A DNA stretch of 63,947 nt, the filler included, from Psammoneis japonica (lineage: Eukaryota), in assembly GCA_008632985.1 (NCBI GenBank). It is 6 parts of 6 records of this genome, joined end to end, with 100 filler letters (N's around TTAATTAATTAA, not from the genome) between each part and the next. Parts side by side here need not be neighbours in the genome. Positions count along the whole stretch, not along the records: positions 55,936 to 63,947 come from QPGO01000546.1; 5 more parts are not named here. One strand, written 5' to 3'. This document shows positions 22,421 to 63,947 of the stretch, piece by piece (positions within the stretch are counted from its first letter, which is position 1; each line of letters opens with the position of its first letter). A program made the translations under genes and the position numbers. The notes below the pieces were generated by a model, which saw only the letters and a program-made list of their open reading frames with translations, had not been told where the DNA came from and did no database searches.

Positions 22421-22851
22421 CAGGATTTGAACAGGATTTGGATGCGCGCGAAGCATCGCGTGCTGTTTAGTTTACCGCGCACAGTTTTGTGTGCTTCAGT
22501 TCCGCGCGTTCACGCGCGATGTAGTTTGCTTTCGAGCCAACAAGGCTCACAAGAACAATGACAGTACCCGATTGCACGATCACACGTCTTTCGGCTCCTG
22601 CAACGGTCTCTGAGCGGAGACTCATCTGCCATTTNNNNNNNNNNNNNNNNNNNNNNNNNNNNNNNNNNNNNNNNNNNNTTAATTAATTAANNNNNNNNNN
22701 NNNNNNNNNNNNNNNNNNNNNNNNNNNNNNNNNNATCATTGACGCGCTCCAGGTCTGGGTGGGACCTTGCACTGCTGAACTGTGACATGGACAGTTTTTT
22801 GAATCACATCGCATGTCGCGCACGCAGATTTCTACGTGATTTTTTTGATCG

Positions 22852-25800: not shown

Positions 25801-25915
25801 TGGTGAACATGATGGTGTCAAGGTCCTTCTGCTCTGTCAGGTCGATGATTTTGCACTTGCTTGTCCCTCCAAAAAGATTGCAAAAGAGATCTGCGACCAT
25901 GTTGGTGTCACAAAT
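22852..25915 (+). mobile_element. Internally deleted fragments of a second Ty1/Copia element
   Basis: Protease-like AQIDAGAWASC, GAG-pre-integrase LLWHQ*LGHP, RT STHSSCVE..GGDARDACAHSP and HDKCIH..LLLCQVDDFALAC. Confidence 0.8.
23767..24157 (-). mobile_element. MITE copy 2 (diverged interior, same TIRs)
   Basis: TIRs gatgcgctccag..ggtgggac / gtctcacc..ctggaacacgtc; 4-bp TSD catt/catt. Confidence 0.85.
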
Positions 25916-33807: not shown

Positions 33808-34523
33808 NNNNNNNNNNNNNNNNNNNNNNNNNNNNNNNNNNNNNNNNNNNNTTAATTAATTAANNNNNNNNNNNNNNNNNNNNNNNNNNNNNNNNNNNNN
33901 NNNNNNNGAATTGCTCAGGCTCACCCACACTCGAGCAGCGGGAGTCCATTTGCTCGAGTTGAATCCCAATGGTCGAACCGAGGTGCAATTTGTTGCCTGA
34001 TTTGAATCCAACTCTTCAAATGACATGCCGTCATTCTCTTTTTCTTCAGAAAGACGTTGCTTCTTCCTTGCTCATCATGCTTTGTTGCTGTTGAGTGCAT
34101 CTGGATCGGTGTCGGAAAATTCGGGCAGCATTTCGGCACGATCAAGTGGCGCCCTTCCAAATTTCGTCTCTTGACGGCTCCACTTCGCAGCCACACCTCT
34201 GCAGATTCATTGCCAGTTGCTGGTGGATGAAGGTTTTGATGGGGCTTTCCAACAGTGATGAGAAGAAACATGTGATGTGATCGTTTTCCGCCCTTCTTGA
34301 GGCTGAACAAGTGTCCCGTTTTGTGCAAATTCACTCTGTCAGCAACACAATGTTGTTCTCTTCCGTCAAATTTGAAACCCCGTTGATGCTGCCATGCTGC
34401 TTCTTCAACTCTCCACCCACAATTTGGACTCCCTCATCAATGACATTGAATTTTGCATGTTGCAGAGCTCTGCCCACAGGTCTGCTGGCATCCATTGATT
34501 CCGAGCGAGAGAATCCAGGAACA

Positions 34524-37500: not shown

Positions 37501-40500
37501 CTGGATCTTTTGGTGGATCTGTTGGCGGAGTGGATTTCAATGTCAATCTCATCATTGTGTGCCCAAAGGCATGGCTCGCCATCAGCAGCAAAATGCCATT
37601 CAACAGCATGAAACAAGCACTTTGGAAGCTCCAGCTCATGCCCTGCCACGTCCAGGAGGTCGCACCACAGCTGATTGTCTTGCTGCACTTGAGGGACAAG
37701 GTCCAGCGCATCTGGTTGGGGATCAGCACAAAAGGCGTTCACTTGATTCGAAGTGTCGTCAACACACCCTCTGGCACACATCCGCATTGAAGCTGTCCGG
37801 TCGGGAGTTTCAAAGTGGGCCCCATGAGCTTGACTGTCAAACAGCCAAAATGAGCTGTTGCAAATTTGATTCCAGCAAAAGGGTGAATTTCCGCTGCCCT
37901 GACCAGTGCCGTAGACAGGGAGCTCATCTGAATGGGAGCAAGATGATGTTGAGAGGCCAAGAACTGTGTCTTTGGCCAGCATCTTGCATCATGTGAAGTG
38001 GTGTTTGCCGTCTGAGTTGCTGATTTTGGCGTGCCGTTGCTGCGGCTTTCGAGTGCTGTTAAAGCAGGAATGTTGCAATCGCAGCATGAGGTGCAATCTC
38101 CATCACTGTGCATCGCAGTTTTCCGGGATGCTCCGCCAATCTCAAGCACAAGTTCCTCAAGGTGCACCGGTGCATGAGCATTCAAAAAGGGATGCGTCCC
38201 ATAAATTCCTGGATTGTGCAGATGACGGTGTTCCATGTTCTGCGCCAAGGCTCTCCATTTCACACTGGATGTCAATTGGAAATCTGCCTCGTAGATGTGG
38301 ATGACTCGGAGACGATGCACCTTGTTGTTTCCCGGCTCTTTGAAAATCATGACGTTGACAACATCCTTCCACCTGTTGAACGAGCACCCCCAATGCAGAG
38401 CACAGTTTAACAAATTCAAGCGAATCCGAATCAGCCACTGTTGAACTTCATTTGAATGCTGACACTCAGACGTGAGATCACCTTCGGGGGTGGTGGAGCC
38501 CGAATGAGAATGAGCCACGTGCATTGCTTTCCAGTGTCCCAAATGAAGGCCCGAGAAAATAGAAGCAGATGCAGTTTCCTTCCATGCCTTGAGTTTCCCT
38601 TTAAGATCTGATTCAGACAGGAAGTCAGACACCAACACTGGTGAACGTCGTCGAAGATGTTGAACGAAGAGAGCAGCAGCACTGTTGAGAGAGGATGTGT
38701 CGCATTCTCCATCTAAGATCAAGTCAGCCACAACCGTGTCACCTTCGTGTCCGAGATCCACAGACAGGGGAGGAACTGCAGGAGGTGTGCCATGTGCCTG
38801 TCCAAAGTGTCGCTGATTCTGAGAACACAATGCTGCTGAAACGTCGTCTGGGGCATCGATCGTGATCCAATTTTTGCACTCTTTAGGATTGGCAGCCGGG
38901 TTGTGAGGGACCTGTGCGCCATTGACTCCTGTGTCATGTTTTGCCTTGCATGCATTGATCTTGCGAAACAACCGGGCGGTTTCTTCTGACTTCCGCATGT
39001 TCCGAATAATTCTTGCCGATTTGTGGGCGGCAGCTGCACCGTCCAGGTCCAATTTGGCAATCTTCTCTGCCAGTTCCCGCTCACGTTGCTCAATGCTCTC
39101 CTGATGGGTTCCAGTCCCAGGTGGGACTCCGTGTGACATTGGGCCCGTAGAATTCTACGTGCGAGCTCCGCAGTGAATTTACACTGCAATGAAAACACAA
39201 ATGATCGCCAACAGAAAAAGAGGCAATTTTACGAACGCATCTCCTCCTTCATGCTTGAAGTGCATCATCAATGGTTTGCCTGGGTGTGTTCTTCAGACAT
39301 CAAAGAATGTGCCCAGCGCATTTTTGTTCTCATGAATGTTGAAAATAGAAAGCCTTTGGCTTTGCAAAACAGGGAGCATGAAACAATTTCGTAGAATGTG
39401 ACACGCAGAAATGTGCGTGCGCGACACACGATGTGATCCAAAAAACTGTTGATGTCACAGTGCAGCAGTGCAAGGTCCCACCTAGAGCTGGAACGCATCT
39501 CCTTTGCAACTGCCTTGCATTCAGCCTGTGCCTTGCGAAAGGCAACCTGACATTCATGAAATGTCGTTGGAATGGAGAATGAGCCTGTCAGCTCTGAACG
39601 CACCTGCTGGATCTGGGTGACATGATCAAGACGGTTCCTCATCATGGAAAGAACACGAGCAAAGATGTGTGCTCTGTGATGGAGATCTGCCAACTTGACC
39701 GACCAGTCGGGTTCACGGTGGGATCGACACTTTTTCACGGATGCTGGGGAGAACTGAAGAAGATCTCGGTCCAAGCGTTCTGCCAGTTCGTGATTCGGAG
39801 CATCAGACTCGATCAGCTGGGTGGATCGTTCCAAGACAGAACGGCCATCAAGCATGGGTCCAATGGAGGTTAAATGCGAGGTGACCTGGGGTTTGGAGGA
39901 AGCCTGAATGTCGCGAAAGGAAGCTTTGGGTAGATCGACGGTTGGGTTCCCGAACAGTTCCATCGTGTCGAAGTCCACAAAATGTGCCCGATGATCTGAC
40001 GTGACACGGTGTCCAAATGCCTCACATCCGCCCAGGCGAGCCGCAGACAATGCTCCTGGAGATGCCAGAACACAGTCCAGTCTTTTGGAGCCTCTTGCAC
40101 ATGTGGAAAATTCGGAAACACCGAGGATTTGGAACAGGACGTCGGACAAATTGAAGCATTGGGCAAGTGCAGCTGGGGAGTCTGCATCCAAAGAGAAGTC
40201 CGCATTGAAGTCACCAAACAAGATCACTTCTCGGTCATTCTCCGCACGAAACTCTTGGAGCACACGCGAGAGGTCCGTGCAGAAGGCTTTGCGGGGGTCG
40301 ACAGAGTTGCGGCCCTGTTGGCGCAGCAAATGCAATTGTTGAGCATGGGCAGTTGTCTTCCCTGGTTGTTTTTGTTTTTTAGCGCAGACTCTGTGGCATG
40401 AGACAAACATGACTTGTCACCCATTGCAACCGTCAAACACCTGAACAGACCACCGGCCCAACGGATCAAACTCCTGGGAGCGGAGTCGGGCCGAGATGGA

Positions 40501-42970
40501 ATTGCACGAGACAATTGCTGTGCCACCCAGTTTGCATTGGGCAGAAAAGGGAGTGGAGCTGCAAGAGAATGTGCCTCTCCCGTGGAGGAGGGACTTCAAA
40601 ATCGCAGACCGACACACAGAGAGCACATCGAACTGGGTGGCATCCAGACACATTTCTGAAATTCCAACCACGTCCGCTTGAATTTCGTTGGCAATCTGAC
40701 AATGACCGTTGAGATCCCCGCCGCGCTTGTCAAACTTGCATCCATTGGCGTTGAAGGCATGGAGTCTAGTGTGGTGTGGCAGTTTCGACCGCAGTTCATG
40801 TCCGATTGGTTCACTTGTCTTGAGGTGGGAAAAATCGATCCTGCGATCTGCTGAAGGAGCACAGTGTCTGCCGTCTAGTGTGTGTTGCCATGCAGTCAAA
40901 GGTGCAGCTGAAGAAGACTCGCTGTTCATGGTTGGGCCTCGCTCCTCCGAGGAGAAGACTGGGGCTCACAGCGATGCAAAGGGTCTGAGGCAGTTTGAAA
41001 GGAGAACTTGCGACATCGAGAGGCACATCGAAAAATGTGTGCCAAAGTGTGGAACTCTTGAAGTGTTGAGGCAATGTCAGGAGGGCGCCCAATCTGTTGA
41101 GGGGGAGGAGGTGGCGAAGTCCAACCCCACGCTAAAAATCCTTCTCTTTGTCACGATGGTTGCCAGACCTCTCTGGTGTTTCGTTGTTGTCAGGACGTTT
41201 CCGTGCAATGCTCTGTGTGGGTTGGCTTGCCTGCAACAGTTGGACGATCTGATTCATCTGTGACTGCATCCCGGACAGTTGTTGCGAGCAGCAGTCCTGT
41301 GTGGCCATCATGTCATTCATGTGTTGAGTGGTGAACGTGTTGTTCAATGCCTCCATGTCCCGAGAATGTTGTGCACGCATCTCAGCGAGGGCTTTGTCAT
41401 GTTTCTCTTGCATTGGGTTCACAGTCTGTTGAACTTCTGCCAACTGTGCTGCAACAATTGACGAGCCAGCGGTCGACTGTGTTGCCTGTGCATGAGCATG
41501 CGAGGAAGACGTCGAGCTTCGACACCCGGGAATGCCACACAGGAAGGTGGGGAGAACTGGGAGCAATGAGTGAAAATGTGAGGAGGCACCGCCGAGCCTT
41601 GAGAGGTCCCTCGTCCAGGGTGACCTCGTCCTTCATGTCCACGTCTGGCACATGGTTTTGAAGCAGGTTGTGTCGAACCTGGAGCCTGATCATCAGTCAG
41701 TGGAGAAACATCCGAAAATGCAAGAGATTCAAGACTGCGAATGCCAGCCGACATGACAGATTTGCTGGTGTCGGATGATTCTTCGAGGACACCTGACACT
41801 TGAGGAGGTTCCGAAAACAGGGGAGATGGGCAAGATTCTTTCAAAATGGAAGGGATCAAATTCATGACGCATGATGAAACAGCTGCACGGATGGTTTCGA
41901 AGTTCCGACGGTCCACAAGAATGTTGTGTCGTCCATCAACAATCGTGGATTGAAACACATCCTTCACTCCAGTCAGCGCTTTAAGGTGATTTTCGAAACA
42001 AAACATCATGTCCGGGGTGGTGTTCAGCAGTGGTGCCACGAAGGCATCTTCATTGTGACGAGCTTGCGTCTTGATGGCGTTGTGAAATGCAAGAGGGGAG
42101 ACATGATGAGTTTTCGCCATCACGATGTGAGTCGGGAGTTTGTTCGAAGCGCAAAGCAAAGCCTTGCCCGCAGTGCGATGTTCTTCGCGTAAAACTTCAA
42201 TGGCAAAAGCAGCTGTTCGAAGCGGTGTGGCAAGTCCATCATTGTTGGCACGCATCGAAGCAGGCATCAACCGAAATTGTGGCATTTTAGTGTGGAAACT
42301 TCCGAGATCACTGATGAACAATTTGGCAGCTTCGTCGACCGGAGCATGTTCAGTGGATGCAGCAACATGACATGCCGGAGTGGCCGTGTCGATGTCAGAC
42401 TCGTTCCAGAAATGACGTTTCACACCCACATTGTTGGAGTCCAAAATGCTCTGGACATGTGGATGGGAGCGTGTTTCGCGCAGTGGAGTCTTTGTGAGAA
42501 TGCGGTGATGCAGGCGGTGAGTTGCCGGGCGTTTTTCGCCGCTGTGATTCGTCGTGATGACAAAGTGTTGTTCGTGTTGGAGAGAAGCAATCCATTCTGC
42601 CACGTTGAGATTCGTGACACGGTTGTTGTGGTTGTCAAGAATCTGAACATCCTTGTGGCAAGTGAACAGAATTTGCTGTGAGACTTGCAAATGGGTGGCA
42701 GCAAGAGTCATGGGCTTGCACGACAATTCTTTGCCACGAATTTCAAAACGGATGGTGATCTCTTCGAACTGATGCTCAGTCGGCTTGGAAGAAAGCTCAA
42801 TGGAAGACTGGTCAACAGTGACATCGTCTGCCACAATGGCGTCTTTGTTGTGAGTGGGGGCGCGGCTGCCGTCAGTGACGGAAGAAGACGCCATGGTGGT
42901 TGGCTGTTCTGTGGGGAACCTGGCATTAAAATTACGCAGGCAACATCAACGCGAGTGCGTGCAGAGTTGC
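34524..42970 (-). mobile_element. Full-length degenerate LINE (ORF1; ORF2 with APE, RT and RNase H), possibly Ambal-like
   Basis: 16-bp TSD agagaatccaggaaca at 34508-34523 and 42971-42986; ORF1 from 42894; APE GDFNA..RLDC..SDHR; RT LRVIHIYEAD, GTGQGSGNSP, GCVDDT; RNase H SDGS..AE..CDN..KSHQD. Confidence 0.9.
39103..39499 (+). mobile_element. MITE copy 3 inside LINE ORF2
   Basis: TIRs gatgggttccag / ctggaacgcatc; 4-bp TSD tcct/tcct; removing it restores VAKESIEQRER. Confidence 0.9.
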
Positions 42971-44948
42971 AGAGAATCCAGGAACAGTCGATGCATGTGT
43001 TTTGATGTGAACAATTTTCGGACGTCAGACATGATGGGTTTTTGCCCTTTGGCCCTCAGGGAGCTTTGCAGGTGGGTTGGTGAGGTGGGTGCAGGTTGCA
43101 GTGCAAAAAGCCAAAGATTTTCAAGAAGCTGTGAGCACCATCGTCAAGAGACCGGGCACGTGACAATTCTCGTGCTTTTTGTTTTCCCGCCAATGAAATG
43201 AACTTCAACTTGGTGACGTGTTGTGCCACTTGCGCAGAAATCTGCTCCAAATTTCAAAAAATCAATTCCAGCCATGCAGATTCCAGATTTCCATTCAGAA
43301 CAGGTGCAGATTTTCTCAAGCCAGTCTACGTAAAGGGACCTTGCAGCTGAGTCATTCGACCAAAATGTTTTTTTGCACATTCGTCGGCGCCACCCCACAA
43401 TCCTCGTGCTTTTTGCACGAGAAAAAAAAAAAAGACTTCAACCATGGTGAGCAAATCATTTGCGGCGGCGTTGATGTTGACAATTGAGCGGCAATTGCAT
43501 TGGGAGAGTCTTTTTAAACCCCATTGGAAGCATCTGGTGTGGTGATTGCCGCTCGAATTTTTCCTTTAGAAGCTTTTTTTTTTCCATCCACTGCTTCTCA
43601 TGCATTTTCGCTGTTGTGGCCTCCATCCCAGTCAAAGGTTGCAAGTGCCTCTGTGACTGAAGCACACAAAGGTCACATGCATTCATTGAATGATTCAATG
43701 GAAGTGGTGGTGTGGATGGAGTCACCTTCGGACATTCGCGCTTGTTGGTCAAGCACCGCTGTGCTTCGTGCTTTTGTGTGGCAAGAACATGCCAACGACA
43801 AGGGTGATTGCTTGGTTGCAACTTCATCAATGTTTTAATTTGAGAGACAAGCACACATGGAATGCATTGATCAACCCTGTGGGAAGGCCATCAGTGGGTG
43901 ATTGCCACTCAAACTGTCAAATGTCGCACTTTTGCTGACGCTTTTTTTGCTCTTCATCACAATTTCTGCAGCAGGTGCATCGACCGGCAACGCCATTTCT
44001 GAGGTTCAAGTCAGGGTTCTTTAGATGCAATCATGTCTGTTCACTCACATGCACACAGCAGATGACAGGGTGAGGTGTCTGGCTTTTTGGGGTGGTTCCA
44101 CAGAGCAGAGCAAACACAGATCCGCCTGGAAGTGGTTTGCCAGCCGCCGCCCAACTTGGCAACCAAATCAACTCAGACTGCAAGGAGATTCATCACATGT
44201 TGTCATCAAATCAACAGTGCCTTGCCACGCATTCTCCATTGCAATGATCATGGGAGGTTGGAATGAAAAGAAAAGCTTGGAAAGCACTTGAGATGCCGGA
44301 AGATGTTGGGCTGGAGGTCACAGCGCACCGGCCTGGTCCCGGCCTGGCCTGACCAAAGTGGCAGACGAAAGTCTCTAAGTCATGCAGTGTCTCTTGGAGA
44401 CCTGTCATCAATGCATTGCGTGTCCAAGCCAGTCATCCAAGGCTCTTGAGCTGGTTCATCTTAGAAAGTGATGCCAACCACTGGCGGGGAGAGGGTCCTC
44501 AGACATTTGATTTGCGCAGCAAAATTCTCGTCTGCGCTTCACTTCACATTCTTTTTGAAATGATGGGCAAGACAACTTCACCCTGACAATGAAGACATTG
44601 AAAACAATTAATTTTGTGAGCACAACAACAGAAAATGTCATAAAACTTGCCTCGAGTTCTCACCTCATGACAAATGCTCCGGCATCTGACTCGTGATCGG
44701 AGGCATCAAAAGCGGTGCTCTCGTCCAAATTTCACCGTGCTTCTTTTCAAAACAATTTAAAAACTTCACCTCGACCCAAATCCATTGGAGCAGGGAGATT
44801 CGGGCAACTGAAAATTCCATCGAGTTGCAACTTGGACAGGCAACATGTNNNNNNNNNNNNNNNNNNNNNNNNNNNNNNNNNNNNNNNNNNNNTTAATTAA
44901 TTAANNNNNNNNNNNNNNNNNNNNNNNNNNNNNNNNNNNNNNNNNNNN

Positions 44949-47900
44949 GGGGTATACGTGGCATAACTGTCGGTGTAGTACTAGGAGCTGGACTGCTGCT
45001 TGGTTTTGCTGATGCATGTCACTGGGTGCAGGGCTGCTACTGGGTTCTACCGAAGGCGATGCGCTTGGCGCTGGACTGCCACTCGGGGAACTACTCGGAG
45101 ACTTACTCGGTGCTGGGCTGCTACTCGGTGGAGTAGTGGAGTGTGATGGACTACCACTGGGGGCCAGACTTGCACTTGGTAGCTCAGAGGGCGTGGTACT
45201 TGGTACTGGACTCGCACTTGGCGATTGTGAAGGTACTGGCGTTGGAGACGGGTCGGTATGGCATCTGTGACGATCACATATCCGTCTTCGGCCGTACACG
45301 TAAATTCATTAGAGACTGTTTCAGCTTCGAGTTCAGCGCTCACGATGTAATTTGCTTCAATGCAAACATCAATTGTGTATGGAACTTCAATCGTGCGCAT
45401 TTCACCAGCCACCATTTCCGTCGGATCAATCAAANTCAAGAAAACTTGTGAGACTGGAGAGCGAGGGGGCTTGCGTCACATTTTGCACCGCTTTGGTAAC
45501 GTTCAGTGTTGTACTTCCGCATTAGTTATGTCANNNNNNNNNNNNNNNNNNNNNNNNNNNNNNNNNNNNNNNNNNNNNNNNNNNNNNNNNNNNNNNNNNN
45601 NNNNNNNNNNNNNNNNNNNNNNGAGCAAGAAGTTTTTCCACTGTTTGTCACGAACTTAATCGTTTGATACACTACATCCTGATCCATGTCGCGGAATATG
45701 ATGCACTCGACACTTTCGACAGTTTCCATTCAACTCAAATATATCGCCACTGTCAACTGTGCTGTTATAGAGTGTCTCATTGCTCAAACCCTTACATGTT
45801 TATGAAGACACTTTCGTTAGCAGCNTGGAGGATCGACACCATTGAGATCATATACGTCGATACACTCGCTGGAATCCCCTTGAGAGTTTACAGCTTCAGC
45901 GCAGGACTTCCAATAATATGAAAATGTGAAGCTAGTGTAATCCGCTGACCTGGGGGTCTGGGTGCTCAATGTCAGAGCACGCAGTACTTCCGTCATCGCT
46001 GAGACATTCCATTTCAAACCTGTAACAATGACAACAAGCGAGAGACACGCGTCAGCCTTTGCAAAATTTCACATTTTATGCTAACAGTTTTTGAATATAC
46101 TTACATCAAGTGTGCAGTTGATTGGCTGAGATGGAGCTGTACTTGGATAAGAGCTTGGGCGCTGGGCTACTNACTGGGAGTCGTACTGGGTGTGCCGCTT
46201 GGTACAGGACTACGACTTGGTGGTGGTGTCGTGTGAGTTGGTTCGTTGCTCGGAGCCGGGCTAGCTGATGGTTCTTGACTCGGTAACGAGCTTTGGAGCT
46301 GGACTGCTACTTGGAATGGCGCTAGGTGTCTGGCTGGGTGCAGGACTTGCGCTCGGCTCGGAACTTGGCGTTTCACTTGGAGCAGGACTGCTTGATGGAA
46401 CCTAGTCGGAGGAGCAGGTGGAGCCAGAGGTAGCTCTGTTGGTGTTAACGATGGAAGTGACGTTGGCAAAGGCGTCGGGTCTGGTAGGTGGTCCTGTTGG
46501 CTCCGGAGTTGGTCGCGCCGTCGGAACGGGAGTAGGAGGAGATGACGGTGGCAAAGTAGGAAGAGGCGACGGAGGCAGGGTAGGTGGGCCACTCGGCTCT
46601 GGAGTAGGCAAAGGTGTCGGGTTTGGTGTAGGATTAGGTGTAGGTGGTCCTGTAGGCTCCGGAGTTGGCCGCACTGTCGGAACGGGTGTAGGAGGAGTTG
46701 ACGGCGGTGGAGTGGGGGGGGCACTTGGTTGTGGAGTAGGCAGAGGCGTCGGGTTTGGTGTAGGATTAGGTGTAGGTGGTCCTGTTGGCTCTGGAGTGGG
46801 CCGCACCGTCGGAACGGGTGTAGGAGGAGTTGACGGAGGCGGGGTAGGTGGGCCACTCGGTTCTGGAGTAGGCAAAAGGTGTCGGGTTTGGTGTTAGGAT
46901 TTGGAGTAGGTGGTCCTGTTGGCTCCGGAGTTGGCCGCACCGTCGGAACGGGTGTAGGAGGAGTTGACGGCGGTGGAGTAGGTGGGCCACTCGGTTGTGG
47001 AGTAGGAGGAGGTGTCGGGTTTGGTGTAGGATTAGGTGTAGGTGGTCCTGTTGGCTCTGGAGTGGGCCGCACCGTCGGAACGGGTGTAGGAGGAGTTGAC
47101 GGAGGCGGGGTAGGTGGGCCACTCGGTTCTGGAGTAGGCAAAGGTGTCGGGTTTGGTGTAGGATTAGGTGTAGGTGGTCCTGTAGGCTCCGGAGTTGGCC
47201 GCACTGTCGGAACGGGTGTAGGAGGAGTTGACGGCGGTGGAGTGGGGGGGGCACTTGGTTGTGGAGTAGGCAGAGGCGTCGGGTTTGGTGTAGGATTAGG
47301 TGTAGGTGGTCCTGTTGGCTCCGGAGTCGGCCGCACGTCGGAACGGGTGTAGGAGGAGTTGAGGGTGGTGGGCTGGGTGGGGCACTTGGCTCTGGAGTAG
47401 GTAAAGGTGTCGGATTTGGTGTAGGATTAGGTGTAGGTGGTCCTGTTGGCTCCGGAGTGGGCCGCACCGTCGGAACGGGTGTAGGAGGAGTTGACGGTGG
47501 CGGGGTAGGAAGAGGAGTTGGAGCCGGTGTAGGCGGTGTCACCGGTGGCAATTCTGGTATTTCTGTTGGGGCAGATGAAGGTGGAGGGGTCGGTGGCATT
47601 GTTGGCGACGGCGTGGGAGGCGGAGTAGGTTGAGCTACTGGCGGAAGACCTGGAACTGCTGTTGGTGCCGACGTTGACGGTGGTGGTGTAGGGTTGGGTG
47701 TCGGTGAAGGTGTAGGCTCGCAACGTGATGGTGGAGGGAAAGGCCTTGAAGGTGGAGGAAACGGCTTGCCAGGTATAAACTTTGGTGGTCTAAACTTTGC
47801 TGGTCTCTTTTTCTTGCCATTGCCACCAAACTTTGCTTTTCGACCTTTCTTGCCCTTCTTCCGGACTTTCTTCCCTCCCCTTTTCTTGAATCCTTTTCTA

Positions 47901-48759
47901 GCATCAAACAGACCTTTTCGAGGGCCTTTCTTCTTCTTCTTTTGGAATGGCATGGGCGCTGGAAAAACTGCGGGTTTCTTTCGAAGAGGCTTTTGGGGTG
48001 TTTCGACACACTCACAGCGAGGATGATCGCGGTGTAGAAACACGGCCACTTTGGCACCCTTCCAACCGGACCCCTTTTGACCATACGTGCTTTTTCGTGA
48101 AGGGCACACGTAAACACCATGTGGAACTTCGTCACCTGGACATAGCCAAATAACGTTCTTGCACCAGGATTCTTCACTGGACTGAACTCATCCGGTTCAT
48201 TGAAGGCCTCTTAGAATCACGGGTGTCGAATCCGCTGGAATCTTCATCAAGTCTTCGCTTCCAACCATTACCTCGCTTTCTGAACACTTTCTTCTTCACA
48301 GGTCCAGGCTTACCCCATACTGGTCCTGGTGTACCCGGAATCGGACAAAAGCACTCAGCGGGCACGTTTGCTTGCGAGTACAAGCAAGGTTGCGAGAATC
48401 GGAGGCGGGATGAGAAGCCTCCTGATCAACCTTTTCATTTTGCATTACGTGGGAAGAAGCTTCCGTCGATTCAGTCTGAAGGTTCGAATAAGACTCAGTA
48501 GAAGCACTTTCGGAACGACGCTCCGAGAATATGCTTCCGAGCATGCTTTGCCATTCAGTGTGCCCTACGGCGCTGAAGTTTCGGTTTCTTCTAGTCCCGG
48601 AGTCTCGTCCATTTTCATGGGAGCTGTTCCAGTGCTATCTTCCGTGACTTTATGGAAGCTGAAACCTGATGGCCAACCACGCGCCTCGCCAACCGTGACG
48701 GTGCATCCGCTGAGAACCAGCAACAAACACAAACCAGTCGCAGCAGCACTGCAGCGCAT
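44949..48759 (-). CDS. Secreted Lys-rich plus Pro/Thr/Ser-rich mucin- or extensin-like protein with Cys-containing domains; frameshifts, intron(s) and gaps
   Basis: Signal peptide [22 protein letters not shown], a Lys/Gly-rich block, 44-aa PT repeats, xPS repeats. Confidence 0.7.
46480..47510 (-). repeat. 132-bp coding tandem repeat ([44 protein letters not shown])
   Basis: Period of 132 nt, e.g. tggtcctgtt at 46911 and 47043. Confidence 0.92.
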
Positions 48760-54905: not shown

Positions 54906-54997
54906 GAGTCATAAGTAGAATTGTATATATTTTTTATACACTTGATTTTTTAGGTAAGGAACCCGGATCCAACATTTTTTTGAAAAAATGTTGGATC

Positions 54998-55835
54998 TGT
55001 TACGACGATTCTGCAGAATCTGAGATTCTGCTGAATCCTGGCATGGAATCTTGTGAAAATGAATTCTGTGGAATCAGACCTCGTGCCCATGTTTTGATTC
55101 TTGTGAATGATGGATTTTGAAGAATCCGTCTTGCCCACTCACCAGAATTCCTGTTTCTTGCAGTTGCCGGATTCTGAAGAATTTTGGCTGCTGGCTCAAG
55201 ACGTGGCACCCTTGTCTCTCAGCCTCTGTTGCTCTTTTGCAGCACCTTTCTTGTTGTGATTCTGTTGAGTTTCTTGGTCAAGAGGAGAGTCTCTTTGTGT
55301 TGCTTTTGCTGCCATCATGTCAGTTGCCCTTCCCCCCTCCTGCCCTGATGCCACTGCTGTGACTTCTCCCGAGAAGGTCAGGAACATCTTCATGGAGACC
55401 AAGCACTGAGATGCCTTCAACAAGGCTGCATTTGGCGTTGAGAATGATGACTTTGCCAGTGCTGTCATCCCGCCAAAGTCCAAGCTCCTGCTTCGATCTG
55501 AGTGGGAGAAGAGGGTTCGGGCAGCGAAGTTCTGGAACACGGGAGCTGATGGGCTCAGTGCAAAAGAGTTTCGCAAGCTTTTCACCCACCAAGCTCATGT
55601 GTGGCAGAAGGTTTTTTTGGTGAAGACAAGTGACCTTGGCCATGACACGCTTTTCCAGATCAAGAAAGGCGCAGATGGATCTGTGACATCCAAGCTCATT
55701 GTTCTCTACATTGAGCAGGTTTTTGATGTTGTGGCACAGCACCATGGACAAACAGGTGGTCATCTCAAATTGGGTCGCACGTTCAATGACATCAAGAAAA
55801 AGTTTTACAATGTCACAGAATTGCTGGTTTCTCAC
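54998..55835 (+). mobile_element. 5' fragment of a probable Ginger/TDD-like integrase element
   Basis: Starts TGTTA where the second palindrome breaks; encodes EQVFDVVAQHHGQTGGHLKLGRTFNDIKKKFYNVTE (integrase zinc-binding-like). Confidence 0.5.
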
Positions 55836-55935
55836 NNNNNNNNNNNNNNNNNNNNNNNNNNNNNNNNNNNNNNNNNNNNTTAATTAATTAANNNNNNNNN
55901 NNNNNNNNNNNNNNNNNNNNNNNNNNNNNNNNNNN

Positions 55936-58047
55936 GTCACTGCTTGAACAAGCAATTGTCTGTGACAAACAAGCTGTTGCACTTGTTGTTGCCGAGTGCC
56001 AAGGACTTGGAGCTGATTGGAGACCAACAAACACTGATTGAAGAGGCCTTTTTTGTGGTTGATTTGGGTGTGGTGGTCTCACAGGTCTGTCAATGTAAGC
56101 CCACTGCAGCAGAGAGCAATGTGCACCTTTGGAAGACACTGTTGCTCAACACTCACCTGTTTGCTGTGTTTCAACAGGGCGCCGCTTCTTCCCTTGGATT
56201 GAACCCTTCCATGCGGTCAAATGGAGTCCTGATCCGGTCATCATCAAGGTGAGTCCAGCTTTTGACTTTTGACTTCGTTTCTCTTTGTGATTCTTTTTGT
56301 CTTGCCACCCTCTCAGACACTTGCAATTTTGGGCTGTAACTTTGACTGTGCCTTGAGAAATGAAACTCAATTGGTGCAACAAATCACTCAAGGTCTCCCT
56401 GCACACCCGATGTCATCCATGCCAACCCCTGCAAGGCCCGGGCTCATCTCATTGAGGTGCATCAAACAAGAACAGCTCAAGTTCTGTCCTGTCACATGAT
56501 GGTTTGCATCCCTCACCATTGTCCTGGCCACCACAGGTGGTTTGCTGTGGAGTTCACATGGTCACTTTTGACAACGTCACTGAAGTGAGAAAATGTGCAG
56601 CCATCAGCAAAAAGATTGAGCTCATTTTACAAATCACAACTGATGACGGTGGAAGTCAATGTCATCTCAGCAGCAAGTTTGGTGCACCGCGACACAAGTG
56701 GCATCCTCTTTTGGCTGCAGCCAAGCAATGTGGCCTCAATGTTGCTGGAGTGTTGTTTCATGTTGGTTCTGGATGTTGCGATGCCTCCAGACACGAGTTG
56801 GCACTGAAGGATGCTCGTGAAATCTTTGACACAGCTGAAAGCAAGCATGGCATGCACGTGAAGCTCTTGGATGTTGGCGGTGGCTTCCCTGGAGAGACCC
56901 ACTCCATTTGGAATCCTGCTGTTGAAATTGATGAGGATGACAAGAGCAACAATGAAGGAAAGTCTGGGGAAGACGCTTGTGTTGATGACCATTTCATGTT
57001 CTTCAAGGAAATTGCTGAACAGGTGTCCCCAGTTGCAGATCATCTCTTCCCTGTTGAGTCTGGTGCAAAGGTCATTGGTGAACCCAGAAGGTGCTTTGTG
57101 GCACCAGCTGCAACCTTCTGCATGTCAGCGGTTGCCATTTGAAGCAATGAGGTTGATTCTTTGTTTGTGCCAGAACCCATCAACAACACGGAGGCTGCCG
57201 CTGCTTTGGATGACATGACCCGCAAGGAATGAAAGGTGTTGGTGCACCACCACAGACATGAATCTTCTGTGGGAGCCATCAATGTCTTGGAAAATGACCA
57301 GCTCCTGCACCCCATGAAGGAAACAATTGAGGATTGCAACAAGCTTTTTGCTGGTCAGCAATTGGCTCAGCAAGAAGTTGATGTTTACAAGGACAATTTG
57401 GACCACCACAAAGAGAGATTAGAGAGCGCTCTAGATCAGCTGGGACCTCCTGATGCAAAGCAAATGAAGTCCACTGTTCACATGGTTGAAGGTGTGAACC
57501 ATCCTTTGGTGGCCAAAGTAGCTGCAAACTTGGAAGAGGAAGGTTCTCTTGAAACTTCTGCCTTGTTGACATTGGCTGCTGCCGGCAAAGCCACTGTCAA
57601 CAGTGCAATGTTGCAAGCAGTCACCGACTGTTCTCCTTTGCAAAACAATTGCACCTGTTGCATCAATGATGGAGCATGCGGTGCTTTCAACAACATCATG
57701 TTTGATCATGCAACTGATTGTCCACGTGTTCTTCGACTTGCAGAAGATGCCCCTGGTGTCAAGACCAAAAATGGGTTCAAGCATCTGGACTCGGGTGGTG
57801 ATCACTTGATGGAAGCAACGGCAAAGAATGCAAGTTGTTTGTTTTGACTCTCTTTGGTGGTCCCACCTGCAATTCAATTGATGTGGTGGCACACTCTGTG
57901 TTGCTGCCAAAGCTCAAGGTTGGTGACTTTCTCTGCATCATGAACAATGTGGGAGCTTGCACCATGGCGGCAGCCAGCTTGTTCAACGGGTTTGTTCCCA
58001 CTGAGAAATTTTGTGTGTGCTCCATCATTCAGCCTGAGTGCTTTTAA
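55936..58047 (+). pseudogene. ODC: Ornithine decarboxylase pseudogene; introns retained, Tyr codons erased
   Basis: FFVVDLG, PFHAVK (PFYAVK), GCNFDCA, IHANPCK (IYANPCK), SSKFGA, FHVGSG, LDVGGGFPG, CCINDGACGAFN (YYINDGVYGxFN), GPTCNSID, GACT (GAYT); in-frame TGA stops. Confidence 0.92.
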
Positions 58048-58718
58048 GAAATGATCAAAGGGCCTGAGGCCATTGTCAACCCTGGATCCGTCAATGAAAA
58101 GAAGGAGGTCAACTGAAAAGGTTGAAGCAGTTTTGTGTCTCAAAGAATGCAATGCAGAGACCAAACATGACACGGTCGACTGGAAAACAAGTGAAACAAA
58201 ATGATGCAAATGACAAATGCACCAACAAACAAGAGCAATTGCCCTCTGAGATTCAAACATGGGCAGATGGGCAGAAGAGCGCAACAGAGCTCCTCTGCAT
58301 GACTGTTGTTGTGCAAGACCGTTCCAGTCACACATGGAAATCACTTCAATGGTGCACAGTCCTTTAAAATGAGAAAAAAAAGTGGAACAAAAAAAAAAGA
58401 GGTGTCCACTTGCCATTCTGTTCTGTGCCAAGCAAGCAACATCACATCACCACCCGTGTGACGAGCTTGTCGTTCAGGGCCCTGCGCAACAGTTGTCAGT
58501 TTGTGCTGTCATTGCCGGCGAACACATCCAAACGAAAAGCTCTCAAAAGAGCAGTGCGGACATCCTTCTCCCCAAGATTGACAAGTGCAACACCATCAGT
58601 CATTGAAGCATCGAATGTTTTGTCTCAGCTCTTTGTTTGTGTAAATGATGACGCACAGCCGTTCAGCGAAGCGTCAAATTGCAATGGGGCAAAAAGCGCG
58701 TGCACGTGGCGTGGAAAG

Positions 58719-58720
<2 letters not shown>

Positions 58721-58802
<82 letters not shown>
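58721..58802. repeat. Perfect (GT)n microsatellite, 82 bp
   Basis: Seen directly. Confidence 0.98.
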
Positions 58803-58804
<2 letters not shown>

Positions 58805-59085
58805 GTCTTCACGCGTCACCGCAGAAAATGGGCCCAAAGTTGTTTGCGCGTTTTACTGGCAGGCCTATGGATGATGATGTTGCCAGTGTTGTTCTTCGGG
58901 TTCGGAAAGACTGCGTTGGGTTCGGATTGACTTACTTCCCGTGACATTGACAATTTTATGCTACCGGTGATACTGTACTGTATTGCGGCTGGTGACGGCA
59001 GAATTTTTTCGTTATCACACTCATATATTCATGAAACACACACAAACTAGCTGAATGTCGAAGAAGAAAACCATAATAATTTTTC

Positions 59086-61509
59086 ATGTCGGAAAGGATT
59101 GAGCAGAGTATCCAAGACGATCGTCACAATCTCGGCAGAAGACGAGCGATCGACACGAAAGAAGAATCATGGTTGCGGCGATCATCTATCGCTTCTCGTG
59201 TGGACCTTTCAAGCCAGTCTGCAAACACAGAGAGACAACGTCGTCGATTGACATCAGTCGTTCTTGCGCTGGCTTTCTCCTTTCTGGTTGTGTTCCTTCT
59301 GGTTGCGGTCGTCAATGAGGTACTTATCAGGCCTCACATCACAGAAGAGAATACGAAAAAGGAATTTGCGGATGACATACAAACGACCTACCGAGATATC
59401 GTCAAAGACACGGTTCCATTTGTCCAAGACTGGTATCGCGGTCTTAAAGTTGAAGATGAGGGTCTTCTGCCAGGTTATAGCAAGACTGCTGACGCCGAGT
59501 CAGAAACAGATCCGTCTTGTCTTGAGCGATGGTTGGATGACATTCGATTTAACCTCTCGCCTGACGGCAATCCCTTCACCGCTCCTGAAGGTATTGAACG
59601 AGTCCTAGCAGACATGGGTCTGGCACGCCATCGTTCAATTCGTGAGCATCTCACCGACTTGTTGACAGAGCCACAGCCACTGATTCCCATTTTCGACTCT
59701 GCCTTGAATTGCACTTCTTCGATGGAAGTGCCACTGCGCTTGGCATGCACTGCCGAGTTCCTTTGTCCCGATCGTCTCAGTGTATCTACACCGCAACAGA
59801 CAATGTACCTTGTGGAAACTCTGCACAGGGCCGTCGTTCTAGAAAAGTTGACTACGGAATTGCTGAAAGACCCTCCTGCACTTCGCGAAGTTGTAGACAC
59901 CATGCAGACGAATCAACATGAGCGATACGAACAGTACGTGAATGAGAAATATGGACGATTGCCGGTGTTGCATGAGTTTCGTATGGCAAAGTATGAAGGC
60001 GTTGCAAACACTTTGAATTATATTGCACGAGCATTGGGTGAGGACGAGCTCCCAACAGTAGTGATGCCAGATGCACAACTTAATCTCCTGGAGGCCGTAA
60101 AAGTTGATGCGCTGCTTGGTTTCGAGCAGAATGCGCGAGTGGGTCTAGCTCTTGCATCAGCGGTTCAAATCGAACCTACTATGAAAAACTATGAACTCAA
60201 ATGGAGACTTGGGGAGGACTGGGTTGATGCATACATTGCGTGGAATTCGGCATTTATCGTGGGATCTGTTCCATATGGAGTCTTATCGAAGCTGTATATA
60301 CCTTCTGTGAGCTGCACACACAAGTCAGATCTTGGGGAAGACTTTTTGTCTTTTCGAGCTGTGTCACTTGCCCTTTCATTAATGCAGATACAGGAACCAA
60401 TTTTTGAGGGGCTCAACCTCATTTCCGGCCACAATATGACGCTTACCGAAATGGATGCCTTTTATTCGCATACGCGCAACGCAGGATATGAAGGTCGCCA
60501 CAATTTGGCTGGTGCTATGGGAATCACAAATTACAGAAGCTTGAAGCTCCCGGTACCATCCAAGGATAGGGTAGAGAGGATGCTTTTTACTCTTTGTGGG
60601 GGGACATGCCACGATAACACATGGATGATGTCGGACAAGCATCCGATTTCCATGTTGAGCAATGAGGGATTCAATGTCTACGTCGCCTTCGTTATCTGGA
60701 TTACGTCTGTTCTCGCTGGAGTTGGTTTGGAGCTTCTTGTTTTGCTAAATTTCCTCCATCAAGGTTGGAACAATGACCTCGAAAGGTTTTGGCGGTTCGC
60801 ACAGTTCCTCTTCCCATTGTTCATGATGACAACGCTGGGTTTGGCTGTACATCATAATTTTATGGCTCTAATGCTAATTGTGCCGGGGTTGTGGAAGTTT
60901 GGTTTCCCTGAAGCTACCATGTACATGTATGCGACTCTTTATAAGGATCAGCAGCGAGCTGCTAAGAGGTTTGCCCATTTCCTTAACGCCGTGGGTACTG
61001 TCATACATCATGGAGCTGCGTCGCTGGTGATTTCTACGCTCCTTTCGGGCGCGGGTAGTCCGGGGCGCGAAGTATTGAACCCAATCCTCGTGTTGGTAAT
61101 GCAGCATTGGTTCGTTTTATTGAAGTATGTAAATAGGTACCTCTACATGATTCTAGAATTGGGGTTGGAAGTCTGGTTTGAGTATGCCATGTTCTCCGAG
61201 ATGGAAGCATTCTTTCGTAATCACTGGACGTTGGCTCTTGCAGGAAATGTAATGCTCGTCGCTCACTGGATGTACATTCTAGCAGCTGGAGTGGGGCTTG
61301 CAGTGGCCGACAGGAGTGCAGGTACCGCAAATGCTGACATCGACATTCGAAGCTCGTATCTGAAATTTTTCAGGGTAAAAAGGCGATTCGATAATTCTGA
61401 AACGGCACCTTCTTCTGTACCAGAGCTTGATTCTTCCTCCTCTCCATTAGAACTTGACGTCGTCCATGAATCTAGCTGTGACAAGGAATGCCCGTGGAGA
61501 GCCTCCTAA
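59086..61509 (+). CDS. Hypothetical 807-aa membrane protein (N-terminal TM, soluble domain, multi-pass C-terminus)
   Basis: Uninterrupted ORF, normal Tyr usage, several hydrophobic helices. Confidence 0.85.
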   Translation: MSERIEQSIQDDRHNLGRRRAIDTKEESWLRRSSIASRVDLSSQSANTERQRRRLTSVVLALAFSFLVVFLLVAVVNEVLIRPHITEENTKKEFADDIQTTYRDIVKDTVPFVQDWYRGLKVEDEGLLPGYSKTADAESETDPSCLERWLDDIRFNLSPDGNPFTAPEGIERVLADMGLARHRSIREHLTDLLTEPQPLIPIFDSALNCTSSMEVPLRLACTAEFLCPDRLSVSTPQQTMYLVETLHRAVVLEKLTTELLKDPPALREVVDTMQTNQHERYEQYVNEKYGRLPVLHEFRMAKYEGVANTLNYIARALGEDELPTVVMPDAQLNLLEAVKVDALLGFEQNARVGLALASAVQIEPTMKNYELKWRLGEDWVDAYIAWNSAFIVGSVPYGVLSKLYIPSVSCTHKSDLGEDFLSFRAVSLALSLMQIQEPIFEGLNLISGHNMTLTEMDAFYSHTRNAGYEGRHNLAGAMGITNYRSLKLPVPSKDRVERMLFTLCGGTCHDNTWMMSDKHPISMLSNEGFNVYVAFVIWITSVLAGVGLELLVLLNFLHQGWNNDLERFWRFAQFLFPLFMMTTLGLAVHHNFMALMLIVPGLWKFGFPEATMYMYATLYKDQQRAAKRFAHFLNAVGTVIHHGAASLVISTLLSGAGSPGREVLNPILVLVMQHWFVLLKYVNRYLYMILELGLEVWFEYAMFSEMEAFFRNHWTLALAGNVMLVAHWMYILAAGVGLAVADRSAGTANADIDIRSSYLKFFRVKRRFDNSETAPSSVPELDSSSSPLELDVVHESSCDKECPWRAS

Positions 61510-62022
61510 GTTGACCGATGCATTAATTCATATTGACAAGATCACGGCAAGCCAAAGCCCGACCCCTGGACCTGAGAAGAAGTCGGGAGGCATGTCACTG
61601 CCCATTTCATATTTATTACATGTTATAGTTACATCTCAAAAAAAAGGTTGCGCTTGTTTGGACGCTAAAAGAATCGTAGGGCCCTAGATCAATGGCGTCA
61701 GGCCTTGATGTCCGCGTACTTTTTGCTCTCCAGAGGAGGTAGAATTCATCTTATTACATTCTTTGAGCAACGTGTTCTAATTTCTTCAAAATCAAGTCAA
61801 AGCACTGGAATAAGGCTCTAGGGGACTTTCCATTCAATGTGTTTTTGCTCCATCACCCTCCACGTCTGCCCAATGTCACCCTCGTTTTCGACCCGTTCCA
61901 TTGCCATATTACTGAGTCTGGTGCATTGGAAAAAAGGTCCGTCTTGATTCCTCCAACTCGAGTATTTGGATGTCAACAAGGCCAAGTCTTCGTCGGGATT
62001 TTTCTTGGGGTAGGGCCCTACT

Positions 62023-62105
62023 ACTAGAGCTTGGTAGCTACGGCCTCTAGAGTAGAGAGTTGAGCTCTCTCTAGCTAGCTATAGTAGAGAGTAGAGTTGA
62101 GAGAA
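62023..62105. repeat. Short CTAG/TAG-rich tract of the same type as 945-1405
   Basis: ctactagagc..ctctagagtagagag..ctctctagctagctatagtagagagtagag. Confidence 0.7.
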
Positions 62106-63143
62106 CGCGGTACCCTGAGATGGTGATTTTCAATTTTCAAACGTGACTTACAGTACTGTACAGTGAATGCACTTACTTCTACGTAGGACATGCTGTTTTG
62201 ATCGCACAATGAGATCAAACACGACTCACTCAGATCGGCGCCACATGCATCCATGGGCTCAAGTTCACATAGGCTCAAGTTCAAGAAATAGGCTGGTATG
62301 AAGGGCCGCCACGTGAATCCCATTTTGCGAATATGGGTTGGCCTGCGCGTCTTTTTGCTGTCTTTTCTACGTTTATTTCAGTACTGAAATTACGTGCAAT
62401 CTGAGAATTTTATTTCTCCCTCCGACACGGAAGCGAGAGCATGTTTCTTTACCATGACGACTGTACCGGCAGCTGAGTCGTCTGAAGAAGAGGATGATTT
62501 CAAAGAATATGATGATATTGTGAATTGAAACTCTAGATGCAATGTCATGAATTGCAATGGCAGTTGAAAAAATTAACACCGCTGTGATTGCAGTTGCCAT
62601 CAAACAGATTGTTTCATTCTGCAGCGGCATCCACCTTGTCGCATGACTTCACGGTAGACCAGATTGTGCAACATGAGCAACAATAGATTCAACAAGGGAG
62701 TTATATAAAGCACACGCCATCAAGTCCATCCTGAATGATTCAATTTGAATGTCGGCTTGAGATTCGGGCGCATCGGGATCGGGTTCAAATTTTGATGAAC
62801 GGCAGTGCCTTTCATTGTTGTTGGCCTTTCTGCGAAATGTAACCAAGCCCTTGGATCCAGATCCCTTCTGGATTGCATCCAATGCATCACTTTTGGTCAT
62901 TCCGCCTGGAATGCCGCCATTCTGGAGCACACGGTGAATGTCTTCCACATTTGGCCATTTCCCATCAGAGCTCACTGAGACGTCTGCCATCAAAAGAATG
63001 AGAGCATTGTTGACTCTCGTTTTAATGGGACAACCGCTTTTTTTCTTTCCTGCAACAGCGCTCTTTTTTCTTGCTGGATGCCATGGCTAGACCACACCAA
63101 TGAAGATGATGGTTGATGATGTCAGTGTGAGAAAATTGGAAAC

Positions 63144-63945
63144 TCAAATGATGAGTGCTGAATCACGCAAAGATCTGCGCACCTTTTCATCGGTCGCAAG
63201 ATCGCGCAACGCTTGGCACGTGGTGTGGCCATGGCGTAAAAGAGACGGCATTTTCACAACAAAGGAAGGTGGGGCATCGGTCGCTGATGACATGTTCGAG
63301 CCTTTGACGCATCAAAAAGGGAACAATGCAATCGTCGGCGACCGATGCCCCACCTTCCATTGTGCTCAAAATCGTGACGGCATGACGGCGCCATTGTGCC
63401 GTGCTTTGTCGTGGTGAAAAAGGCATGAGAGGTCACAAAAATCAACAATCTGATGGACAGATGATGGACCAAATGTTCGCCAAAAAGGTCACAAATCTGC
63501 ACGCACAAAATTGTCTTAAATGATGCATGTTAAAGATTTTTCCGTTGAGGCGACATGNCCAGCCCATCATTTAAGACAATTTTGTGCGTGCAGATTTGTG
63601 ACCTTTTTGGCGAACATTTGGTCCGTCACATGTCCGTCAGATTGTTGATTTTTGTGACCTCTCATGCCTTTTTCACCGCGACAAAGCACGGCACAATGGC
63701 GCCGTCACGCCGTCACGATTTTGAGCACAATGGAAGGTGGGGCATCAGTCGCTGATGATTGCATTGTTCCCTTTTGATGCGTTAAAGGCTCGAACATGTC
63801 GTCAGCGACCAATGCCCCACCTTCCTTTGTTGTGAAAATGCCGTCTCTTTTGTGCCATGGCCGCACCACGCACCAAGCGTTGCGCGATCTTGCGACCGAT
63901 GAAAAGGTGCGCAGATCTTTGCGCAACTCAGCACTCATCATTTGA
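63144..63945. repeat. ~380-bp imperfect inverted repeat (arms 63144-63525 and 63565-63945) in TpA-poor sequence
   Basis: Arms are reverse complements and give near-identical ORFs on opposite strands; the spacer contains an N. Confidence 0.85.
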
Positions 63946-63947
63946 AT

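Follow-up and report, generated by a model that had tools for sequence, protein, structure and literature searches.

Loss of TpA and CpG dinucleotides across an intron-bearing ornithine decarboxylase pseudogene in the diatom Psammoneis japonica

What kind of mutation removes nearly every TpA dinucleotide from a conserved host gene, and what singles out such a gene as its target? A damaged ornithine decarboxylase (ODC) gene copy in the diatom Psammoneis japonica (assembly GCA_008632985.1) raises this question. The copy occupies positions 55936–58115 on the plus strand of the window, by which we mean the whole 63,947-nucleotide stretch of DNA analyzed here. The window consists of six contigs (11426, 11108, 11073, 10941, 10887 and at least 8012 nt) joined by linkers of the form N44-TTAATTAATTAA-N44 at 11427–11526, 22635–22734, 33808–33907, 44849–44948 and 55836–55935, and the ODC copy lies at the start of the sixth contig (QPGO01000546.1; 55936 to the window end). 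Because the contigs are joined artificially by these linkers, neighboring contigs are uninformative on linkage. An initial annotation had described the copy as a target of TpA hypermutation. We find that the loss of TA sites is indeed near-complete but is not the whole story, as a CpG to TpG/CpA signature that the annotation missed is equally prominent in the same gene.

An intron-bearing ornithine decarboxylase pseudogene

Identification of the ODC copy is backed by Pfam, Protein Data Bank (PDB) and diatom-protein matches. A 228-aa open reading frame (ORF) at 56456–57142 matches Pfam Orn_Arg_deC_N (E=3.2e-33), a second ORF at 57802–58047 matches Pfam Orn_DAP_Arg_deC (E=4.8e-07), and mouse ODC (7odc_A, E=6.2e-33) ranks first among PDB matches. 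ODC is a group IV pyridoxal phosphate (PLP) decarboxylase. Protein searches at E≤0.001 returned 1478 proteins, the best 120 of which form the homologue set used below to measure conservation. Within this set the named top matches are all diatom ODCs, led by the 694-aa ODC of Nitzschia inconspicua (P0001; 77% over the 228-aa ORF) and followed, among the matches listed, by ODCs of Bacillariaceae sp., Seminavis, Cylindrotheca, Amphora and Mayamaea, so that the closest relatives of the copy appear to be diatom (Bacillariaceae) ODCs. A frameshift-aware alignment to P0001, our reference protein, spans residues 48–694 with 643 matched columns, 452 of them identical. Homology reaches ~58115, beyond the end at 58047 that was first assigned to the copy: the original stop lies near 58113–58115, and the TAA at 58045 is a premature stop. 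Two further in-frame stops, TGA at 57140 (an Arg to stop change of CpG type) and TGA at 57230, together with frameshifts near 56401 and near 57803, interrupt the reading frame, and the copy thus lacks the uninterrupted frame of a functional ODC. The 5′ end is truncated by the contig edge within exon 1.

The alignment to P0001 resolves four exons and three introns. Partial exon A (55936–56094) begins at the contig edge at approximately residue 48 of the N. inconspicua protein and is followed by intron 1 (56095–56177; 83 nt, GTAAG..CAG, phase 1). Exon B (56178–56248) carries the motif PFHAVK, with a Tyr to His change and a retained Lys codon that we take to encode the PLP-binding Lys, and precedes intron 2 (56249–56316; 68 nt, GTGAG..CAG). 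Exon C (56317–56456), with the motif IHANPCK and the frameshift near 56401, is separated by intron 3 (56457–56536; 80 nt, GTGCA..CAG) from exon D (56537–58115), which holds the remainder of the coding region; all of these features lie on the plus strand. The protein alignment crosses each of the three GT..AG interruptions without a gap.

For comparison at the nucleotide level, a metagenome scan yielded 17 loci with intact diatom ODC genes, some pairs of which are near-duplicates. The nearest full-length locus is 68% identical to P0002, a second homologue of the copy, and because the loci are too distant to serve as its ancestor we used them as controls and as a guide to intron positions. Intron 1 shares both site and phase with an intron of L003, the closest orthologous genomic locus obtained (CAAT/GTAAG ... 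AG/GG), and L003, L001 and L007 all lack introns 2 and 3. The presence of three GT..AG introns marks the copy as a non-processed pseudogene and not a retrocopy. With intron 1 held in common with L003, the earlier proposal that the introns were retained and that the copy never passed through reverse transcription holds, and we read the locus as probably a duplicated-type, DNA-level copy of the diatom's own ODC gene.

The changes that first drew attention to the copy are replacements of conserved Tyr residues, and alignment to P0001 bears out all four of the motifs originally quoted: CFYAVKCN in P0001 is PFHAVKWS in the copy, DIIYANPCK is DVIHANPCK, YAYYINDGVYGAFN is CTCCINDGACGAFN, and MGAYT is VGACT. 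Among 21 Tyr residues of P0001 aligned with the copy, 11 have become Cys, 7 His, 1 Phe and 1 Ile, and 1 is unchanged. At 11 positions that are Tyr in at least 90% of the 120 homologues, His occurs at a frequency of 0.00 and Cys at no more than 0.01 in the homologues, and in the copy 9 of the 11 are now His or Cys; position 110, the PFHAVK site, is Tyr in 0.91 of the homologues aligned there. Across these 11 conserved positions and 120 homologues, then, His and Cys are not the natural state of orthologues at the converted sites, and the Tyr conversions are real and directional. Arg codons tell of a second process: 12 of 34 are kept, and 18 now read as products of CpG transitions, namely His (8), Gln (4), Cys (4), Trp (1) and a stop (1).

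We scored an amino-acid difference as explained if a single TA-type or CG-type reversal undoes it. By this measure CG-type changes account for 50 and TA-type changes for 30 of the 191 differences between the copy and P0001, a total of 80 against an expectation of 18 (sd 3.7, maximum 30) from 1000 shuffles of the reference residues. The signal sharpens with conservation. At the 205 columns that are at least 90% conserved in the 120 homologues, the copy differs at 37, of which 13 are TA-type, 18 CG-type and 6 neither; at the 394 columns where the six closest homologues agree, it differs at 80 (23 TA-type, 30 CG-type, 27 neither). Counting explained sites as matches raises identity to the copy from 72% to 85% for P0002 and from 70% to 83% for P0001, and because even these best relatives reach only 85% and 83% after correction, the true parent is not among them. 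Like an ordinary non-processed pseudogene, the ODC copy keeps its introns and flank and has acquired frameshifts and premature stops. An ordinary pseudogene decays with a near genome-average spectrum, however, whereas in this copy two dinucleotides explain 31 of the 37 changes at conserved columns.

Loss of TpA and CpG from genomic DNA

Dinucleotide composition confirms this specificity in the DNA itself. Across 55936–58435 the observed/expected ratio (o/e) is 0.03–0.09 for TA, 0.21–0.33 for CG and 1.5–2.0 for CA and TG. In the 14 of 17 metagenome loci with at least 250 aligned columns, which supply the control statistics, TA o/e is 0.36–0.91 and CG o/e 0.86–1.20, compared to 0.06 and 0.28 for the same stretch in the copy. 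TA-type and CG-type changes explain a share of 0.43 of the mismatches with P0001 in the copy and 0.03–0.11 in the 14 intact loci. None of those loci shows a Tyr to Cys change, and Tyr to His is limited to 0–2 cases; in the matching stretch, 13 of the copy's 15 Tyr are now His or Cys.

Site-by-site comparison shows where the lost dinucleotides went. Of 44 TA sites in L003, the copy keeps 1 and has CA at 17, TG at 15 and another dinucleotide at 11, and the intact control locus L004 keeps 22 of 45, with 5 CA and 4 TG. Similarly, 11 of 110 L003 CG sites are kept in the copy, with 32 now TG and 25 CA, compared to 47 of 111 kept in L004 (16 TG, 7 CA). Retention ratios pooled over four orthologues, relative to 12 ordered pairs of intact loci, reveal abnormal loss of only two of the 16 dinucleotides, TA (0.05) and CG (0.27); CA (1.30) and TG (1.24) are over-retained, and the remaining 12 range from 0.81 to 1.09. 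One of 11 conserved Tyr codons survives, corresponding to ~2.4 hits per TA site, and among 205 conserved codons 6 carry a change that is neither TA-type nor CG-type, roughly 0.01 per site. From these conserved-codon counts we estimate a TA-specific rate that may be ~50–100 times background, to an order of magnitude. We considered a gene-conversion patch for four residual TAs at 57386–57519 and rejected it, as a mutated Tyr (57407) lies inside the cluster.

Mutation of the ODC copy acted on genomic DNA, as the initial annotation had supposed. Intron 1 contains a single TA, located in its GTAAG, with 0 CG, 11 CA and 10 TG; intron 2 contains 0 TA, and intron 3 contains 0 TA and 0 CG. Products of the two strands are near equal, both at L003 TA sites (17 CA, 15 TG) and among Tyr codons (7 to His, 11 to Cys). 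Depletion also continues past the gene. A 3′ flank at 58116–58440 is poor in both TA and CpG, as seen in position lists and 500-bp bins, and a further stretch at 58441–58930 is TA-poor and CpG-normal (CpG o/e 0.87; 4 TA in the bin 58436–58935), so that the TA-poor tract extends ~800 bp past ODC homology. Along the contig TA o/e rises from 0.03–0.09 (55936–58435) to 0.14 in the next 500 bp and to 0.43–0.87 from 58936 to ~62.4 kb, and the 2.9-kb tract stops sharply at ~58930, ~150 bp before an intact neighboring gene.

This neighbor, an 809-aa ORF on the plus strand (59080–61509), has normal composition (TA o/e 0.43–0.81), lies outside the hypermutated tract and marks its boundary. The ORF has no Pfam match at 1e-5 and no usable ESM Atlas match. 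A (GT)n run of ~40 units is located at ~58721–58803, upstream of the start of the neighboring gene.

Targeting and origin of the mutated copy

What, then, produced this pattern? Starting from a signature whose direction, two-dinucleotide specificity, reach into introns and flank, strand symmetry and sharp boundary are directly observed, we consider it probable that a silenced tract containing the ODC copy was driven near saturation by two context-specific transition processes acting on genomic DNA, with targeting that follows silent chromatin. The first process, TpA to CpA/TpG, would have removed about nine in ten TA sites on both strands about equally, and its likeliest chemistry is deamination, by a putative enzyme, of adenine after T to hypoxanthine, which is read as G. 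The second, CpG to TpG/CpA, would have removed about seven in ten CG sites, most likely through deamination of 5-methylcytosine in silent DNA that we presume to be methylated. Diatom transposon CpGs are methylated via DNMT5a, according to a published study (PMC9998398). As in methylation-driven CpG decay, loss is confined to the putatively silent tract (CG o/e 0.21–0.33 compared to ~0.9 in adjacent DNA), a likeness in composition; a difference is that the CpG-poor tract ends ~500 bp before the TA-poor tract. Targeting would follow a silent-chromatin state common to this tract and the transposon contigs of the window, and not foreign origin or reverse transcription. This account also supposes a functional ODC elsewhere in the genome.

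Several points weigh against this account. The mutation spectrum is reconstructed from protein conservation and from orthologues with a nucleotide identity of only 57–65%, and not from ancestral DNA. In 111 of 191 cases a difference from P0001 is of neither type, although most of these are probably species divergence. Methylation, chromatin state and the responsible enzymes are all putative, and T-to-C change through oxidized thymine would give the same pattern as deamination of A on the other strand. CpG is depleted as far as ~58440 and TA as far as ~58930; because these ends differ by ~500 bp, the two processes are not strictly co-extensive and a model with a single chromatin domain is too simple. 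Finally, the contig edge cuts off the tract on its 5′ side, where a transposon immediately upstream or a duplication boundary would be invisible.

The sole precedent for TpA-specific hypermutation in the literature that we searched, which contains no report of it in diatoms, is a 2026 preprint on the rhizarian alga Bigelowiella natans (10.64898/2026.01.13.699255). That preprint describes mutation-accumulation lines with de novo TpA to CpA/TpG hypermutation at ~1000 times background, directed at a virophage insert and at giant-virus DNA inserted as one silent copy, and interprets it as a defense against foreign DNA; TA-poor clusters in the B. natans genome are enriched in transposon domains, and an ADAT2-like deaminase is proposed as a candidate. 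The main text makes no mention of CpG or of an extended sequence context. The P. japonica and B. natans patterns share TpA transitions on both strands, discrete tracts beside normal DNA, and TA loss with CA and TG gain; TA-poor coding sequences of B. natans are enriched in reverse transcriptase and transposase domains, and the transposon contigs here are likewise TA-poor. In the ODC copy, A-to-G and T-to-C transitions are confined to the TpA context, and the tract is discrete with normal adjacent DNA. The two cases also differ. In B. natans the rate was measured, the giant-virus insert has lost TA only mildly (Rho 0.45), and the target is foreign DNA; in the diatom, a stramenopile, we see a footprint only, with o/e 0.03–0.09, CpG loss alongside, and a target that is a host-type gene with spliceosomal introns, a diatom-type ODC that has an intron in common with an orthologue.

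The ODC tract is thus best classed with the kind of TpA hypermutation that was described first from B. natans; this instance occurs in a diatom, on a host-type gene and accompanied by CpG decay. New in this case are a TpA footprint in a diatom that is near saturation on a host-type gene that never passed through RNA, and the sight of the TpA process running beside CpG decay. That a host-type gene with no RNA stage in its history is affected argues for a process that operates on genomic DNA and does not select its targets for being foreign. An intron-bearing conserved gene also provides an unusually clean substrate for reading the spectrum, with conserved Tyr and Arg codons as built-in reporters.

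An alternative form of targeting is that duplicated DNA is sensed by homology and one or both copies are hypermutated, as in fungal repeat-induced point mutation (RIP); the ODC copy would then have been hit as a duplicate, and the process would tax gene duplication in diatoms. RIP requires duplication and a premeiotic stage. Fungal RIP resembles the pattern here in being a regional, dinucleotide-specific transition hypermutation of genomic DNA that fills repeats, and at times duplicated genes, with missense and nonsense changes and spares unique neighbors, but its chemistry runs the other way: RIP changes C to T, mostly at CpA in Neurospora, and raises TpA, whereas the ODC tract has lost TpA and gained CpA and TpG. 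Homology-sensed targeting gains from the retained introns, which indicate that the copy arose by DNA duplication, from the probably essential role of ODC, by which a functional copy would be expected elsewhere in the genome, and from the repeats or transposons that make up the other hypermutated tracts of the window. Some diatoms also carry DNMT4, related to the fungal RID gene (PMC9998398). We nonetheless judge this alternative unlikely. Protein searches found no intact paralogue, a weak negative given that the window's own ORFs are also absent from the protein collection. Only two versions with matching flanks appear among the run contigs listed at 80% likeness, each at about haplotype depth and most simply two alleles of one locus; the TA-poor tract runs ~800 bp past ODC homology; and in the sole system measured, the main target is single-copy, by the B. 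natans preprint (10.64898/2026.01.13.699255).

If targeting nevertheless depends on duplication, diatoms would have a second, chemically different RIP-like system, with consequences for the growth of their gene families. In its most general form, this would be a diatom defense that deaminates adenine in TpA of any duplicated or newly silenced DNA, host duplicates included, and so a RIP-like brake of different chemistry outside fungi that is shared with, or convergent on, the chlorarachniophyte system; we regard so broad a reading as rather improbable. The proposal that the process limits evolution by gene duplication as RIP does would rest, for now, on this single case.

A further alternative is that the copy is the original ODC locus or one of its alleles, which decayed after being disrupted, perhaps through insertion of a repeat into exon 1 where the contig breaks, and silenced; a functional allele would then be a possible partner. 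Sequencing runs, three of them listed and all from one sample and one study, bear on this possibility; run contigs were placed on the window at 80% likeness and their differences counted. The ODC stretch has a second version at about equal depth that is 86–88% identical (82 differences over 690 nt, 162 over 56893–58023 and 51 over 58150–58512) and shares the 3′ flank up to 58512. The neighboring gene is likewise twinned, at 3–10% divergence compared to 12–14% for the pseudogene, and nearly every part of 55936–63500 has a second version at similar depth in run X1; no third version of the ODC stretch appears among the run pieces listed at this likeness. Most simply, the whole locus exists as two divergent haplotypes or homeologues. 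Run contigs that match exactly have depth 34–35 over the ODC stretch, compared to 25 for the one listed in the neighboring gene, and while contig depth is a poor measure of copy number, we read the ODC stretch as not amplified in the manner of the repeat at 62270–63947. The equally deep second version with its shared flank, the ordinary genic neighborhood ~1 kb upstream of an intact gene, and the break of the contig inside exon 1 all fit an origin as the original locus. We consider it very unlikely, since an intact allele should by a rough estimate differ by more than 20% and the version seen differs by 12–14%, in a locus where even the constrained neighboring gene already differs by ~9%. Protein searches also returned no intact C-terminal ODC fragment closer than 68%, a weak argument because the collection lacks the window's own ORFs as well. 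From the expected divergence of more than 20%, we favor the view that both versions are already hypermutated.

Two last alternatives are extremely improbable. ADAR-type A-to-I editing of RNA, followed by reverse transcription and integration, has in its favor a resemblance, pointed out in the Discussion of 10.64898/2026.01.13.699255, between the neighbor preference of ADAR and A-to-G change where a T (U in RNA) lies 5′ of the A, but three introns are retained and themselves mutated, both strands are changed about equally and not only the transcribed sense strand, and the flank beyond the gene is depleted too; together, retained and mutated introns, mutated flank and strand symmetry place the process on genomic DNA and not on spliced RNA. 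An artefact, with either systematic miscalling at TA of some modified base in the silent DNA or natural variation to His and Cys at these sites, has nothing direct to recommend it beyond sequencing runs with no record of library type, and it conflicts with homologues that lack His and Cys at the conserved Tyr sites, with frameshifts, CpG-type nonsense codons and CpG loss that TA miscalls would not produce, with normal TA content 150 bp away on the same contig, and with independent de Bruijn contigs of the run that match exactly (0 differences over 687 and 1733 nt), although these may share data with the assembly.

Depleted tracts elsewhere in the window

The same signature recurs outside the ODC contig. 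TA-depleted tracts lie at 11527–22000, 22735–33807, 33908–44848, 54950–55835, 55936–58930 and 62450–63947, and contigs 2–4 have TA o/e 0.00–0.31, CA and TG 1.2–2.3 and CpG 0.3–1.2; contig 1, most of contig 5 and the gene neighboring the ODC copy have normal composition. As far as composition shows, the transposon contigs of the window carry the same process as the ODC tract. The ODC tract and its flanks contain no transposon protein detectable by Pfam (1e-5 and 0.01), and a self-comparison of the contig against the window turned up nothing similar to the tract anywhere else, other contigs included; we thus see no sign of capture by a transposon, nor of a mechanism that senses duplicates. The only match in that comparison is a 130-nt internal repeat at 63.25 and 63.72 kb.

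The TA sites that remain do not represent all contexts evenly. The depleted tracts retain 184 TA in 37.9 kb, against a baseline of 1064 TA in 24.7 kb of normal DNA. Two cautions apply: the baseline comes from within the window itself, and part of the 184 may have arisen by new mutation. Relative to normal DNA, survivors are enriched in TTAA (5.35-fold), TTAG (3.3-fold) and CTAA (2.4-fold) and depleted of ATAC (0.08), GTAT (0.00) and ATAT (0.23). With both strands counted, the survival proxy is 0.27 for TAA and 0.037 for TAT, a difference of ~7-fold. Five of the six tracts have TAA as their most frequent survivor, and in the remaining one TAA and TAC are equally frequent. These data suggest that the mutated A has a 3′-neighbor preference of T > C > G > A, possibly an extended-context fingerprint of the mutator; under the broad reading of a diatom defense against duplicated or newly silenced DNA, this preference for TAT and TAC far above TAA would be the fingerprint of its enzyme.

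Among the targets, contig 3 contains a gypsy-type retrotransposon on the plus strand (28712–33589; RVT_1, RNase H, integrase) with an open 814-aa frame, a kept YIDD motif and TA o/e of 0.03–0.31, and given this partial TA depletion the element is possibly a younger target. On the minus strand of contig 4, 35910–40965 has long open frames and weak Exo_endo_phos matches below the Pfam cut-off, and may be a heavily mutated LINE-like element. Loss of TA removes TAA and TAG stops and thereby leaves long spurious ORFs in many frames of the depleted contigs. Pfam scans of contigs 2 and 4 (1e-5, 0.01) yielded only sub-threshold endonuclease matches in contig 4. A high-copy repeat at 62270–63947, beyond the gene neighboring the ODC copy, is TA-depleted from ~62.45 kb (TA o/e 0.09–0.31), with loose ends at 62268 and 62271 and a summed run-contig depth of 750–1750 compared to 50–100 elsewhere.

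Contig 5 switches abruptly to the depleted state in its last 900 nt (54950–55835; TA o/e 0.08–0.09, CG 0.34–0.45), and the translation of this segment resembles, by eye only, the zinc-binding N-terminal part of a retroelement integrase. The region 46000–48200 has GC content 0.57–0.61, GC skew up to 0.41 and overlapping long ORFs on both strands with no Pfam match. In intergenic DNA, CTAG-rich simple sequence with units such as ctagctactctagagtag occurs at 960–1400 and 62011–62095. The bin 1001–1500 has TA o/e 1.68 and CA and TG 0.43–0.49, the opposite of the depleted tracts, and CTAG-like letters also appear in loose ends of run X2 near 62.05–62.1 kb.

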